DNA from: Escherichia phage vB_EcoM_Maryam
Strand: one strand, 5' to 3'
Sequence record: PQ799574.1
Length of the DNA stretch: 64,000 nucleotides
Below, in pieces: positions 45,193 to 56,904 of the stretch (its first letter is position 1; each line of letters begins with the position of its first letter). The translations under genes were made by a program, and so were the position numbers. The notes beneath the pieces were generated by a model. The model was not told where the DNA came from, did no database searches, and saw only the letters and a list, made by a program, of their open reading frames with translations.

Positions 45193-47888
45193 TCAGCCAA
45201 ACAGGAAGTCTAACGAAGCTTTTTCTTCATAGTCCATACCAGCCGATTCACACATGCCTGCAAGCGGTTTAACAAACGATTTTTGGAACAAAGTTGAGTA
45301 GTCAATCCAAGATAGTACATCAGAACGAATTTCTTTTGGAAGTTCTGTACCCGACGGCCAAGCAATGCACTTGTCGCCAAATGGATTTCCTTCACGTAAT
45401 GGAAGAACCATTACCTTATTTCCATCCAAAATTGGAGCTACACCCAGACCACTAACAGCTCGACGATAAGTTAGCACACCACGAATATGGAACGGGCATT
45501 TAAATCCTGGCCAACCTTTATCATCATATTTCGCTATATCGTTCGCAGTTTTTACTTCAGCAATAACTTTATAGTCAAGTTGACGATATTCTTTCTCGAA
45601 GTTCTTGTAATATTCTTGGACAGACTCTTCACCTTCCTGAAGAATACGACGAATACTTTCTTCAAGAGCTTCTTGAACTGCTTTAGGCGTTGAACTTTGC
45701 TGAGTTTCCATACCCATGATTTTTAGATGCGGTTCAGCAAAACGCTTATCTTCCATATCATATACGTTCAGAGCATAACGCTTTTTCGCTTTCCAAAATC
45801 CACCAACGCCCTTTGAACCAAGTGGAGGGCAAGAAATAGCTTCACGGTCCATATGCATCAGATGCTCGCGGTTATTCATATAATCACATAACTCACGATA
45901 TGCAACATCAATCATAGGTTCCATCTTTTTCTTACCGAACTGATTCATGAATTCAACTAAATCGTTCTGCTCTTTGAATCGGTCAAGACCAACTTTTTCA
46001 ATAACTTTATCTACACAAACATATACCGAATCAGTATCACCTGCTGCAATGAAATCTTCGCCATTAGTTCCGCACACTTTATTCAGATACTCATTAATTT
46101 TACGAGCAATCCACTGAATACCAACTTGGCCGAAAATTGTGATAGCAGTAGCATTTCGCAAATCATAGTAACGGAAATGAATATTACCAAGAGCACCGTA
46201 AAGGCTGTTAATAAGAATTTTACGGTTCAGCTGATTTGTATTAGCAAGTGTAGCCGCTTTTTCACATTCTTCAATCAAACTATTGAGAACAGATTCAGTA
46301 TAATTCGATAGTTCATTTAAGAAATCATCACTGAACTTAACATATCGTTCAACTTCAGGTTTAGTTGAACAAGACCCTGCGCCTTTCATAATAATCTTTT
46401 TAATAGCTTCGGCATTCATTTCTTCAGCGAACATTTTCTTTTTCCAATCTTTACGCTGGAAAAATACTTTAGCGATTTCCTTTGGAATGATACCTTCTTG
46501 ATGCTTATCGTACATCCATCCATTCGGAGAACAAGAATATTCATCACTCGGTTTAGGAGCTGTTCCTGCGATATATTCATGAATTGGATGAACTTTAAAC
46601 TGACCACGAATAGTCTCAGGACTAATGTTAACCTGACGAATAATGCTCGGATACAGAGACGTCAAGTCAAAACTCATAATATATCGACGAGCAATTGGTT
46701 TAGGTTCAAATACAAATGCACCCGGAAAACTCTGTTTAACGTGCGAACCTTGTTGAGGAATAACCTTATGTTCACCTTTCAATGAGTTAAAAATAATAGC
46801 ATCCCAGGTTTTAATAGGACTCATTACACCAGAAAAAGGCATTTTAGCGTAATAAGACATACTTAAAACTAGATCGATAAACCCGCGAATTTTATCAATT
46901 GCTTGAACTGATTCTACGTCAATGATGTTATAACTAATGTATCGTTGATGATTAGTCTCACGAAGTTTATTAATAGGACCGTCGTATGGTAATTTACCTT
47001 TTTTGGTTTCATGCTGAGCAACTGATTCCAAAGAGAATGACGGCAAATTAGTAAATGCGAATTTCTTATACAAATCTAAATAATCAAGAATAGATACGCC
47101 ATCAATAGAATAAATTTCTTTGCTACCGTACATATTTTGGATAAGTTTAGATTTTACTCGACCGATTGGAGAGAAGCGTTTCATACTACGTTCACCGAGA
47201 ACCATTTTAACGCGATTCATGATATACGGAACGTCAAATCCCTCAATATTCCAACCAGTAAAAATAGCAGGTCGTTTCTGTTCCCAGAGATTGATATATT
47301 CCATGAGCATATCACGCTCATTATCGAATGGCATATAAATTACTCGGTCAAGAATTTCTTGAGGAACTTCATCACCACCTTCACAGTCAAGCTTAGCAGC
47401 TAACTTTGCATCCCATTTTGATACTGAACCATACATTGAATTCAAAAGGTCGAAAACATAAAAACGATCATCAATTGAATCGTAATGAGTGATAGCATCA
47501 ATTTCATATTCAGCTTTCATTGGGTCAGGAAATTTATCACCAGTAACCTCAATGTCACAGTTAGCTACACGAACAAATTTTCGGTCATAAACAATTTCTG
47601 AACCGTATGTATCACTGATAAAGCGAGTTTAAAATCGTTCATACCGAGAGCTTCGAGACCGATGTCTTCCATTCGTTTCATCCAATCTCGAGCATCTTTC
47701 ATTGATGGAAATTTTTGAGGAGCGCAGTTTTTACCATAGATGTCTTTGTACTTTGACTCTTCCTTACAATGCCTAAACATAGTTGGAAGATATTCTACTT
47801 CACGAGTACGTTCCTTTCCATTTTCATCAATATAACGTTCAACAATATTATTTCCGACTGTTTCAATAGAGATATAAAATTCTTTCAT
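45193..47888 (-). pseudogene. 43: DNA polymerase gp43 interrupted by a 1-nt frameshift near 47619
   Basis: N-terminal 84 codons in ORF 47565..47888, remainder in ORF 45193..47520 in another frame; the second frame is open upstream and reads ISDTYGSEIVYDRKFVRVANCDIEVTGDKFPDPMKAEY. Confidence 0.85.
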
Positions 47889-48585: not shown

Positions 48586-49131
48586 TTACCATTCCAATGC
48601 TAGTTTTTTGAGTTGTTTCTGTTCTTTTACGTTCTTAGTCACTTCTTTCAAAAAATCATCCGTGACTAAACCTTTTAGTTCTTTTAATACTAAAGGAAGT
48701 TTTCCATTTTTAGTAAGAATTGATTTATAGTTAATTGCATCATTTGTATTAACTTGATACCACTTAGCAAGTAACTTAATAATCAATACTTCGGTGGAAT
48801 CTTCAACCAGTTTTGCCCATTTACCGTATCTTTTACCACGAGGAACTGCAGCCATTAGATAATTAAAATGAGCTTCATCACTTAAGCCTGATCCAATTAA
48901 ATTCATAGCATATACAGCTGGCATGCACTCTGGAAATTGTGATAATGCATTTTCAACCATGAATTTTGAATAATCTTTTTGAGCAATAGAGCATTTAGTT
49001 TTATTATTGATAGCTCCAATTATTTCAAAAAATTCATTTTCAGCTTTTTCTTTAAAAGAATCAGCAGCGGATTGGACAGCTGTCCAATCTTTTGAATACC
49101 AAGCAAGTAGGAAAAGATTATGTATGCCCAT
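48586..49131 (-). CDS. 62: clamp loader small subunit gp62, N-terminus atypical
   Basis: 181 aa; from [15 protein letters not shown] onward matches recalled gp62, first ~9 residues MGIHNLFLL do not. Confidence 0.75.
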
Positions 49132-50941: not shown

Positions 50942-51718
50942 TTATACTCTTGGACCATATATTGCTCCAACATTTTGCCACGTTGGAGAAGACCCTATAA
51001 CAGCATATCCAGAATCGCCGCCATTGTATTCAGATCCTTGACCACGAATATTACATCTACCTCCTGCGGCGCCTACCTCACCACCGCTTCCGCCATTATA
51101 GATACCGTTCACGGACCCCGATCCAGGCGCATAAAGAGTACCAGCAGTTGCGCCTGATTGCATATCAATAGATCCGCCAGGTGCACCAAACGGACGCCCA
51201 CCACCACCACCAAAGGTTAATCTCATTTGTGAAAAAGGAGAATAATACCCACCGCCACCACCGCCACCACCGGCAGCAATAGCTCCGCCATTATTAATTC
51301 TTAGTCTCCCACCAATATCGTTTTGAATACAATGACCTCCAGCTGAGCCAGGACTATTGCTACCGCCATTACCTCCACGACCATACATCGTTACGCCGTG
51401 TATATTTAACTGAACATATTCATTTGGTGTATCTCCGTACATAAAGAATAAAGGAACATCTTTAGAATATGATACTAAATCACCTGTAATATTAAACACT
51501 ATAGGTGCACTACCTGCCTCAAAACATCTATCTCGGAACCATTGACCATTGAAGTTATGGTCTGCTCCAAGCGTGTGAATTATTTCAACAGATCGACCTA
51601 TCATATTACTCATCCAAAACGGAACGCCCATTCTTAATCTTGCGGCTGCTCCTGCCATCCAATGGTCTCCAGTCTGTGCCAATGCAGAAGTTCCTATCCA
51701 CGGTCCTGCTACTGCCAT
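50942..51718 (-). CDS. 38: long tail fibre adhesin gp38, T2/T6-type with glycine-rich repeats
   Basis: 258 aa from ATG 51718 ([15 protein letters not shown]...), GGAGG SD; poly-Gly runs; ORF track starts at upstream TTG. Confidence 0.8.
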
Positions 51719-51728
51719 ATAAACCTCC

Positions 51729-51744
51729 AAGGGGCCGAAGCCCC
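51729..51744 (-). terminator. GGGGC-UUCG-GCCCC hairpin between genes 37 and 38
   Basis: Identical core to hairpin at 47947-47962. Confidence 0.45.
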
Positions 51745-51749
51745 TCTTA

Positions 51750-54700
51750 TTATTTTAACAATGATTTAACTAATGCTTTAAGTTCTTCGATTTCTGATTT
51801 AAGTTCTGCAATTTCTGCAGTATGCTCATTGATTGCAGCTGTATTTAAACCAATTACACCGTTATAGTTCAAACGAAGTAAAGCTTCGCCATCAGGGTCA
51901 CCTTCAACTAATTCTGGTAAAATAGCTTGAACTTCTTGAGCAATTAAACCGGCGTTAGGTTCCCATTTCTGATTGCCTTCTTCATCTAGGCCTCGCTTCT
52001 GCATATAAGTGTAACCGTTAATTTTGGAAAGCTTCTCAGAAGCATTTTCAAATTTAACAAGGTCTTTTTTAACACGAATATCAGAACGGACATAAACATC
52101 TCGAACAAATGTGGAATAGGCATCGCTCTGTTGGACTAAATGACCAAAAGAAATAATAGCTCTTCCTTGTTCAGTCCACAAAGCACCAGTGGTATCCCAA
52201 AGACCTTCATGGAGATGGTAAGCGGACGACCATGAAGCAATATGCATTCCATTTGCAACCATATTAATTCGCCCATCACCGCCATGAACTAATCCAGTAT
52301 CATTATCACCAATAACAAGACATGGTCCAGTCCACACCGGGTCACCACCGCCAGCTGATAATCTTGCTCCGGTTTGAACCATGTTAGGAACATACAGAAC
52401 TCCAGTGTGGTGGAATTCATAGATAGCTTGTGGGTCAGAACCGTTTTCCTGGTTACCTACACGAATAATACCTTGTGCCCAGTTATTAGTAATGCGACGC
52501 ATACCAAAATCAACGCTAGATATGTATCCTTCATTCGTAATAGCAGATTTTCCTTTAATAATAGGATAATAACTATCATTACCAACATTACCAAAATCTA
52601 CAAATATCGGAGCTTCTTGTCGCCATTGGTTTCCCCAATCGCCAGCCTGGTGCGCAGTCCATTGTGTACCGTTTATATGAAGGCGGTCTCTATTAAAATT
52701 AAATGTTCCTTGACCTTGAGGAGAAAGCGATATTTCGCCGTTATTTGTTATGTATACACCACCCTGTGTAATGTAACTGTAAAAACCTAGACCGTTGTCG
52801 CCGCCACCTTTGCCTATATACCAGTTATTTGTACCACCTACATCACTACGGATATGTGATGAAGCACCTCCGCCAGCAGTTAAAACGAGAGCATCATTGC
52901 CTGCTGATAAAGTCAATTTACCAGTCATCGTGTCGCCTTCTTTAGAAACACGAGTAGCTATTGCATCGCGAATATTTGTGGTTTCTCCCGCAGAAGTAAA
53001 CGATTTCCAAATATCTGAGAAAATATTACCATTACGAGCAATAGTAGCTTCACCGCCGCCGACTTGAACGTTATCGGGGAAATTAACTGTACCGTCTTGA
53101 TTAAAACGAGACGTATGGCCTTGTGAACCATCTTCTTTTAAATGATGTAAAACAAATGTACCCGAATTAATTTCAGTACCTAAAGACCAAACAGCTTTAC
53201 TGTTTAAAAACTTCTGTTTAACAATAGGATAATATTTACTTACTGCGTCATCATCGATTTCCTGGAAAATAGGAGCTGCTTGAACATATTGAATATCATA
53301 ACCACCAGCGCCAGCGCCGTGACCAGTAAATTTAATATATCCGTTTGCTGCGAACGTATTGTAACTTGATTGTAAATCTGGAATAGTAACTTTACCAGTA
53401 TCTAAAGCCATACTAAACGGGCGAAGTGGACCGATATCACCATGTTTACCTTCACCATAAGCAGTTGGAATAATATGAAGACTGCCTTCTGAACGTCTAA
53501 AAATAGCTCCATAATCTGCGTTCCAAATGCGAAGAGCATTCACTGCTCCAGATGAAATTTCGCCTGTTGTGTGAACTCCTCTATTTCCAGCAGTAACACC
53601 AGATGATTCAAATGAACCGTTAACGTTCATTTCTACTTCACCTGTTGTAAGTCTTTGAATATAGCTCATCCAGCTAGTTGCATCGGAAATTTCCATGACA
53701 TTTTTGCGATTACCTTCACTAGGAATAGTAAATGTATTACCCCACACGGAAATTGTCATATTATCAACTGAACTACTACCAGTTGTGTTACCTCTAAACA
53801 TCAGTGTAGAAGCATTATTTCTACCATCGATATTAACAGAACCACCAATAACGTCAATATTACCAGGAGTAACTAACAAACCGCCATGAGTATTAATGTT
53901 TGTGGTACCCTTGCCGCGGAAATAATGATGATAGTTACCGCCTTGATAATATCCTAAAAGAGTCTGACCATCTCCAAACGCGTTATTATCGTGATATGTC
54001 ACGACAGTAGCAAGAGCATAATTTTCAGTTGGAGGAGTAGTTAAATCGGTTCCGTTAGTAGAATATCCAGCTACAAATTTTCTTAGGCTAGTTGTTTCGC
54101 TAGGACTAAATAAAAACGTTTTTGTTCCATTATTAACGCTAAAATAATATCCATCTTGATGCCATTTAAATCCAGTATCATTATCTCCTAAAGCAATACT
54201 AGATTGTCCTAATATTGAATAATCTTTATTACCAGGTGTTAAACCAATAGAAATTGAGTGACTTGATTTAATTCCGCCGCTCCAAGTAAATGACCAAAGA
54301 TAGGTGTCAAGTCCATCACCTGCATACCAAGTTATTCCATCATTATCTTTAACTTCATGGAAAATACCAGAACCAACGGCATTACGCATGACACGAAGAT
54401 GATTAATAGCAGTAGTGCTTTCAGACAATGGAACATTGTCTGCCATCGAATAGATGTCATAATCACCCGTAGATTTATTATTAGTAATGACTTTGTTGGT
54501 CAGAATTTGTGGAGACGAAATAGATTTCCATGCTGATACTTCAGGTGAAGTAAATAGTCCACTGCCTGAAAATGCATAAGTGCTTTCGCTACCAGCGGCG
54601 TAGTCTTGAACCCTGATATTAAGTACTTGTGTAGTTAAACCATCATTAGCCGGGGCATAAATGATTCCGCGTTCGCGACTATTGTTATCGAAAAAACGAA

Positions 54701-55061
54701 CATGCGCTGTACCTGAACTTTTTGTAATAAGTTCTCCGCCTTCAGTCATAATCTGCCCAGCGGAAATAATATCGCGAGTTACTCGAGCAATACCAATTAA
54801 ATTAAAATTACCAGTCTGAGTGAAGACGCCATTTAAAGTATAATCGCCAGTTTGGTTATAATTGCCTGTATGAATAACATTCCCGTCAATACTACCGCCT
54901 TTAGCAAAACCCAGATCAATAATATTTCCTTGGTCATCTTTAGTAAAAAGTACACGGTCTTTTAAGTTTATAGCCAATTCACCTTCGGCTAATACTGAAG
55001 CGGCAGGACGTGCTCCTGCAGTTTTGCTTCTTTTAAATTGTATTTGTTTTAAAGTAGCCAT
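51750..55061 (-). CDS. 37: long tail fibre distal subunit gp37 with C-terminal intramolecular-chaperone-like domain
   Basis: 1103 aa; glycine-rich fibrous repeats; C-terminus SDIRVKKDL...[15 protein letters not shown]...[14 protein letters not shown]. Confidence 0.85.
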
Positions 55062-55788: not shown

Positions 55789-56904
55789 TTAAACTTCTCT
55801 AAATTCCTGTCCAAACACTTTACCAGTTTTAGACGATGCTTGCGTAGGAAGTACCATTATATCCGGAGGTGAAGCAGATTCACAGATATAATTAACTCGA
55901 ATACCATTGACGCCAAACTCAGCAGGTTTTGAAATGCCACCATTTCTTGACACTTCAGAAAAGCTTAAATTTCTCATACCGCCTTGACCCGCTTGTGCAG
56001 TTCTCTGTGCGTATATCGTAAATCCAACTGCATTTTCTGGAACAACTACATAATCTTCTTTTAATTCCCAAGACCCAGCTTGTCCGGTAAACTCAGCATG
56101 TGTTGAAGAAATATATCCATCCGATTCATTATAAAATCTAATGGATATATTCGTAGTTCCAAGAGCAAGTAAATCGGCATCAGCATATAGTTGTGCTTTA
56201 AGATAAAGAACATCGCCAGGAATTAAATTGTAGTCAGAAAGTTTACTTATCGCGGATGAAGTTGGTAGACGTGCAATTTCGTTATTAGTTCCACCAACCG
56301 CTGACATAAACTGCTCAACGCTTTCATATGTTCTTCTTGGAAACCCGGTAGCTCCAACGTCTTCTAAACTGTCAAATACAACATCTAAAATAGTTTGATA
56401 ATCATCAGTGCTTTTTCTGTTGCTCAGTTTAACATGCTCTAATGCGATAGCTCTTTTAGAAGAAGTGTAAAAAGAAGCATATGATACATCAAATCTTGAC
56501 AATACAGAGTCAGATGGAAAAGCAGACGTTCCTGCTGTTCTTAGCCAAGATACTACTTCAGGAGGAAAATTAACCTTTCCGCTAGTTAATATAGCAACAA
56601 TTCTATTATTCGTCAAAGAATTCATGAAACTAACAAAAGCAGCTGATGTAGTATCATTTGAAGTAGAAAAAGCATATGACTTACTATCAACTAATGCTCC
56701 TGTAGAAGGGTCAAAAACTCTTAAATGAAGACCTGCGCTAAATGTTTGACTTCCTACAGGATTATCCTGAAATTTAACATATGGTCCTGCTGTAGAAAGC
56801 GGGCAAGAACCCGCTATACTTATTTTGTATCTTACTGAATTACTTTCCGATAAAAATGGCGTTTGGACGTATCCTTGTCCAAACTCTGCCATAAATTTTT
56901 CCAT
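55789..56904 (-). CDS. 35: long tail fibre hinge connector gp35
   Basis: 371 aa; follows gene 34. Confidence 0.85.
   Translation of the reverse strand: MEKFMAEFGQGYVQTPFLSESNSVRYKISIAGSCPLSTAGPYVKFQDNPVGSQTFSAGLHLRVFDPSTGALVDSKSYAFSTSNDTTSAAFVSFMNSLTNNRIVAILTSGKVNFPPEVVSWLRTAGTSAFPSDSVLSRFDVSYASFYTSSKRAIALEHVKLSNRKSTDDYQTILDVVFDSLEDVGATGFPRRTYESVEQFMSAVGGTNNEIARLPTSSAISKLSDYNLIPGDVLYLKAQLYADADLLALGTTNISIRFYNESDGYISSTHAEFTGQAGSWELKEDYVVVPENAVGFTIYAQRTAQAGQGGMRNLSFSEVSRNGGISKPAEFGVNGIRVNYICESASPPDIMVLPTQASSKTGKVFGQEFREV

Follow-up and report, generated by a model that had tools for sequence, protein, structure and literature searches.

The C-terminal chaperones of phages S16, K1F, phi29 and T5 are removed by autoproteolysis (PMC7289586; PMC7917993). 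The tail fibre protein gp37 of Salmonella phage S16 (PDB 6F45; Dunne et al. 2018, as relayed in PMC7917993 and PMC7289586) carries this domain in the same position as the protein described here, and autocleavage at DLNVS^SDRRIKK removes its last 113 residues (PMC7917993). The same source places autocleavage after trimerisation, and describes how it exposes a docking surface for the attachment domain of gp38 and the conserved tryptophans. The gp37 proteins of T2 and T6 also undergo C-terminal cleavage and are then capped by gp38 (PMC3157838), the proteolytic processing of T2 gp37 at its C-terminus going back to Drexler et al. 1986, as cited in PMC3157838. The T2 gp37 (LC348380) carries a C-terminal Peptidase_S74 match (residues 1243-1300), and the next gene encodes an adhesin of the GP38 family, an arrangement like the one found here.

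Phage T4 has a different type of fibre tip. The T4 gp37 (NC_000866) gives Collar and Phage_fiber matches, lacks S74 and forms its own receptor-binding tip, unlike the gp37 described here. The T4 gp38, of roughly 183 residues, has no GP38 match and is an unrelated assembly chaperone located outside the virion (annotation; PMC3157838), the T4 system being gp37 with gp38 and gp57A as its chaperones. T4 and the present phage have in common a homologous N-terminal region of gp37, the position of the gene and its neighbours (genes 36, t and asiA).

The chaperone of endosialidase NF is the founding member of Peptidase_S74. This domain of phage K1F (PDB 3GW6) is only 12-15% identical to the domain reported here, and belongs to a triple β-helix tailspike rather than to a long fibre, the cleaved end of which has no adhesin cap, unlike the fibre considered here. 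The closest known systems also include the chaperones of the T5 L-shaped tail fibre pb1 (PDB 4UW8) and of the neck appendage of phage GA-1 (PDB 3GUD), which we group together; the cleaved tip of pb1 binds the receptor itself, whereas a separate gp38 would be added here. The ICA domain of MyRF (PDB 7DC3), a eukaryotic membrane-bound transcription factor, is internal, and its cleavage frees the transcription factor, compared to the maturation of a fibre in the present case.

The DNA analysed here is a stretch of 64,000 nucleotides from Escherichia phage vB_EcoM_Maryam (PQ799574.1), termed the window hereafter. The phage is a T-even phage (Tequatrovirus), the gp37 of which is made as a precursor of 1103 residues. 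Gene 37, encoding the distal subunit precursor of the long tail fibre, occupies 51750-55061 on the minus strand (1103 codons and a stop), with genes 36, 35 and 34 upstream and gene 38, t and asiA downstream, and it is intact despite the irregularities of assembly or sequence that we found elsewhere in the window. The PHROG 1699 family "long tail fiber protein distal subunit" matches residues 1-1102 with an E-value of 0, and the Pfam matches are Gp34_trimer and Peptidase_S74, whereas an NCBIfam scan of gp37 and gp38 gave zero matches. A look-up of the exact gp37 sequence among the contigs of the collection gave no record; the nearest database protein also has 1103 residues and is 91% identical. 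A plus-strand open reading frame of 75 codons that overlaps the region (51640-51867, TTG start) is mechanical, has no support of any kind and was discarded.

Comparison with T2 showed that the present phage is not T2 itself, an identification that we rejected. The T2 gp37 has 1341 residues compared to 1103 here, and the two proteins are 34% identical over the first ~680 residues and 30% identical over the last ~290; moreover, the alignment of the two gp38 proteins is limited to the N-terminal 147 residues, with 46% identity.

The last 111 residues of gp37 (Ser993-Lys1103; 51753-52085, minus strand) are a C-terminal intramolecular chaperone of the Peptidase_S74 type, which is predicted to be released after trimerisation. 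The Pfam family Peptidase_S74 (PF13884, "Chaperone of endosialidase") matches residues 993-1052 over profile positions 1-57 of 58, with an E-value of 1.1e-12 and 48.5 bits against a curated gathering score of 22; this core (51906-52085, minus strand) contains the invariant elements G1038-x-I-A-Q1042 and P1049-E. Among PDB sequences, the best match is the S16 gp37 construct (6F45_A), which aligns with the last 132 residues up to the final residue (E=2.5e-35), followed by a weak second match to the MyRF ICA domain. The chaperone parts of the present gp37 and S16 gp37 are 56% identical. An earlier note on this DNA had observed that the last ~110 residues resemble the self-cleaving chaperone domains of phage fibres, and both matches bear out this observation. 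It had placed the domain at 51750-52090, a range that covers the stop codon and residues 991-1103; the peptide quoted there is present exactly at the end of the open reading frame, and begins at Val989 (52097), so that the range was a few bases off.

An exhaustive search of 1.84 billion cluster representatives returned 15,211 relatives of the domain at E<=0.001. For the best 150 of these 15,211, the match lies nearly always at the extreme C-terminus of long proteins, the same position as in gp37, whose own domain starts at residue 993 and reaches the final residue. Of 209 domain hits, 145 leave no more than 15 residues between the domain and the C-terminus, the median being two, and most of the hits that lack the C-terminal position trace to one repetitive protein.

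Searching for homologous proteins with the 116-residue domain as query returned mainly short fragments. Three of the proteins obtained (P0001-P0003) are open reading frames of 170 residues named "tail fiber domain-containing protein", which correspond to gp37 residues 934-1103 and are 98-99% identical to the query. Open reading frames of this kind lie on several contigs of 165-167 kb deposited as Escherichia coli, and, judging from their length, their first codon would correspond to a position near Met934 of gp37. This points either to a truncation or frameshift of gene 37 in these assemblies or to phage genomes deposited as bacterial contigs.

The fold was predicted by AlphaFold2 for a single chain spanning residues 988-1103, with a mean pLDDT of 83.2. 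The model has a small β/α core followed by a long C-terminal helix, which DSSP assigns to positions 79-115 of the 116-residue query (residues 1066-1102; 51756-51866, minus strand) at a pLDDT of 88-97. This long helix probably forms a trimeric coiled coil in the precursor. Structural similarity search using Foldseek placed the MyRF ICA domain (7dc3, E about 1e-5) and the endosialidase chaperone (3gw6, probability 0.84-0.97) at the top, and the predicted fold resembles only solved intramolecular chaperones among PDB entries. By contrast, a profile of 14 relatives searched against PDB sequences reached only S16 gp37, MyRF and one tail fibre (8jov), and not the endosialidase (3GW6) or T5 (4UW8) chaperones. 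The kinship with these two thus rests on the Pfam assignment and the fold comparison.

Altogether, four independent lines, namely the Pfam profile, the sequences of solved structures, the exhaustive search and the fold, assign the domain to the S74 type, and Pfam alone would annotate it automatically. A similarity arising by chance or from composition, such as the coiled-coil bias of a helical tail, has a practically negligible probability, being refuted by the Pfam match, by 6F45_A, by the 15,211 relatives and by the fold matches.

Ser993 and Lys998, five residues apart, form the Ser/Lys dyad. The codon of the predicted catalytic Ser993 is at 52083-52085 and that of Lys998, the predicted general base, is at 52068-52070, both on the minus strand. 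The dyad serine and lysine of endosialidase are also said to be five residues apart, a spacing reportedly described by Schulz et al. in 2010. Conservation was counted in a phmmer alignment of 170 collected proteins, 167 of which could be aligned. Of these 167 relatives, 165 retain Ser993 and every one retains Asp994 and Lys998; G1016, G1038, A1041, Q1042, P1049 and Y1066 are nearly invariant as well. The dyad that the earlier note had proposed to look for is therefore present and nearly invariant.

The alignment to the published sites of S16 and the fPS phages puts the predicted autocleavage site between Arg992 and Ser993 (...DVYVR|SDIRVK...; 52083-52088, minus strand). We predict a cut at this bond because it aligns with the published S16 site DLNVS^SDRRIKK. 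The two proteins have in common the motif SD-x-R-x-KK as well as the gene order 37-38, whereas their fibre shafts differ upstream of the last few residues. The fPS phages carry the cleavage site DVYIR^SD (PMC7917993), which is near-identical to DVYVR|SD here, and the T2 motif NVYIR-SDIRLK aligns with the same site. By analogy, the cut would release 111 residues, compared to the 113 reported for S16, and leave a mature gp37 of 992 residues (52086-55061, minus strand). This predicted product, delimited by alignment to S16 and T2, would end in ...FVRDVYVR and form the fibre shaft and, at the tip, the docking surface for gp38. The residue preceding the bond (P1) is Arg here and Ser in S16, which counts against the proposed reading; T2 and the fPS phages also have Arg, and it is the commonest residue at this position among the relatives (72 of 160).

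Gene 38 encodes the partner of the domain. It extends from 51718 to 50942 on the minus strand (50942-51718), and its product of 258 residues is a T2/S16-type tail-fibre adhesin, as identified by Pfam and PDB matches. The Pfam families GP38 (E=9e-71) and Gp38_N (E=1.7e-19) both match, and S16 gp38 (PDB 6F45_D) aligns with residues 1-255 (E=5.6e-49), a full-length match that includes the attachment domain; a second solved gp38 (9v85) matches with an E-value of 1.7e-79. The translation also contains poly-Gly stretches. The N-terminal attachment domain (residues 1-40; 51599-51718, minus strand), delimited by Gp38_N and predicted to dock on the cleaved gp37 tip, aligns from residue 1 of S16 gp38 onward and contains Trp7, Trp20 and Trp35; the role of conserved Trp "prongs" in gp38 is described in PMC7917993. 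A T4-type tip would have an S74-free gp37 and a chaperone gp38, whereas S74 and an adhesin-type gp38 were found here. The earlier note had inferred from the chaperone that the mature tip differs from that of T4. This difference holds, as T4 gp37 has no S74, but it is not a new implication, being the established distinction between T2-type and T4-type tips. The processing of T2 gp37 before gp38 binding, which that note had also invoked, is indeed found in the literature (PMC3157838, and through it Drexler et al. 1986).

The mechanical open reading frame of gene 38 (50942-51730, minus strand) opens at a TTG four codons upstream of the ATG at 51718. This ATG lies 7 nt past a GGAGG Shine-Dalgarno sequence, and both the Gp38_N match and the alignment to T2 gp38 begin there; it is most likely the true start. 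An 18-nt UUCG hairpin (51729-51746, minus strand), found by RNA folding, lies downstream of the double stop codon that ends gene 37 and upstream of the GGAGG of gene 38. It has a GGGGC-UUCG-GCCCC core with two extra pairs, followed by the GGAGG and the gene 38 ATG, and its 49-nt context folds at -15.8 kcal/mol (z=-2.4). We take it to resemble the CUUCGG hairpins of T4 intercistronic regions.

We propose, with a probability of roughly 0.9, that the C-terminal chaperone aids the trimerisation of gp37 and is autocleaved at Arg992|Ser993, and that gp38 then caps the tip. By analogy with S16, T2 and the S74 family at large, we infer for the present gp37 the cleavage, its autocatalytic nature and the order of events. 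The chaperone domains of the three chains would associate with each other, probably via the long C-terminal helices, and thereby align the chains in register, from which the folding of the trimeric fibre tip would nucleate at the C-terminal end. Once the trimer has folded, Ser993 activated by Lys998 would attack the Arg992-Ser993 bond and the chaperone would be freed. Docking of gp38 would follow the departure of the chaperone, and from this release and docking it would follow that the receptor-binding tip in the virion is gp38 rather than gp37.

Alternatively, the S74-like domain could be a permanent trimerisation module that stays uncleaved, with gp38 binding elsewhere or the domain itself forming the tip. 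The cleavage of gp37 in this phage is a prediction from sequence, and uncleaved chaperones do crystallise, as in 4uw8, which is the T5 fibre with its chaperone attached. We nevertheless regard a permanent module as unlikely: Ser993 and Lys998 are intact and nearly invariant in the relatives, the 56%-identical domain of S16 is autocleaved and its gp38 docks on the surface thereby exposed (PMC7917993), T2 and T6 gp37 are cleaved (PMC3157838), and the gp38 encoded here has an attachment domain in common with S16 gp38.

A second question is which activity would cut the bond. A separate protease of the host or the phage might shorten gp37, leaving the domain as a folding aid without a catalytic role. 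PMC3157838 speaks of proteolytic cleavage and names no protease, the title of Drexler et al. 1986, as cited there, contains "proteolytic processing", and an Arg at P1 could suit a trypsin-like enzyme. However, P1 is Ser rather than Arg in S16, and autoproteolysis is the mode given in the literature for S16, K1F, phi29 and T5 (PMC7289586; PMC7917993). Moreover, in 167 relatives whose hosts differ widely, the invariant Ser/Asp/Lys motif coincides exactly with the cleavage point, as expected for autocatalysis. We therefore consider a separate protease very improbable, and retain autocleavage by the Ser993/Lys998 dyad as the preferred reading.

At the nucleotide level, the best match of the 37-38 region is Escherichia phage vB_Eco_CP, with 94% identity. 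Over the 411 nt encoding the chaperone, the identity is 100% with vB_EcoM_G2133 and 99.3% with AR1, whereas across the 37-38 region as a whole it is only 90.3% with vB_EcoM_G2133. Similarly, the nearest database protein (P0024) is 91% identical to gp37 overall and reaches 100% identity from about residue 985 onward. Together with the last strand of the mature tip, the chaperone therefore behaves as a conserved module in a mosaic gene, in agreement with the lock-and-key pairing between gp37 C-termini and gp38 N-termini that has been described (PMC3157838; PMC7917993).

A more speculative extension is that gp37 from about residue 985 to residue 1103 and the attachment domain of gp38 form one exchangeable cassette, and that the released trimer of the 111-residue chaperone might have a further role, such as handing the tip over to gp38. 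This part of gp37 is shared at 100% identity with a relative that is only about 91% identical in the remainder of the protein. We consider both ideas a long shot, and the cassette has, as lock-and-key pairing, largely been discussed already (PMC3157838; PMC7917993). If the cassette were real, the swapping of T-even fibre tips would always use one recombination boundary, located shortly upstream of the cleavage site.

The original observation is thus confirmed and its interpretation supported, and the biology is already known: the architecture and mechanism have been published for S16, T2, T6 and related Tequatrovirus phages. The value lies mostly in correct annotation and in engineering, and no new question is opened. 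By analogy with the processed fibres, virion gp37 should be annotated to end at Arg992, and receptor specificity would be assigned to gp38, not gp37. In recombinant fibres and host-range swaps, the chaperone and the attachment domain of gp38 must remain a matching pair.

Several irregularities were observed elsewhere in the window. Gene 43 (DNA polymerase) is split into two open reading frames on the minus strand, at 47565-47888 (107 residues) and 45193-47520 (775 residues), owing to a 1-base deletion at 47620/47621 compared to Shigella phage KRT47 (GATATAAGC -> GATAAAGC). As the cause we consider either a sequencing error or a genuine frameshift in this essential gene.

In addition, the gene order is interrupted by two breakpoints. 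The first lies at 49101-49106 inside gene 62 (clamp loader), where the homology of the 43-regA-62 block ends at 49106 and that of the arn-asiA-t-38-37 block starts at 49101, in the orientation opposite to T4 and T2; the N-terminus of gp62 is replaced by "MGIHNLFLL", and none of 515 matching phage records spans this junction. The second breakpoint is at ~13988, 56 nt into gene 45 (sliding clamp). The segment 12800-13988 is 100% identical to Escherichia phage vB_EcoT_BCU-2 (PV290051), in which gene 45 continues, whereas past ~13988 the window continues with the motA.1 / gene 52 region, read from the opposite strand. Compared to the T4 and T2 gene order, the block of roughly 35 kb between the breakpoints is inverted relative to both flanks, and gene 44, most of gene 45, the 5' end of gene 62 and motA are apparently absent. 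Neither breakpoint is spanned by any of 500-800 matching phage records, and no repeat common to both junctions was found. The breakpoints are suggestive of an inversion or of wrongly joined contigs, and genes 37 and 38 are untouched by them.

Upstream of the fibre-tip genes, gene 35 (55789-56904, minus strand) encodes the hinge protein gp35 of 371 residues. Its residues 58-126 match the Pfam family ILEI (PF15711; E=1.1e-8) above the gathering score, and ILEI, for interleukin-like EMT inducer, is an unexpected domain name for a fibre hinge protein.
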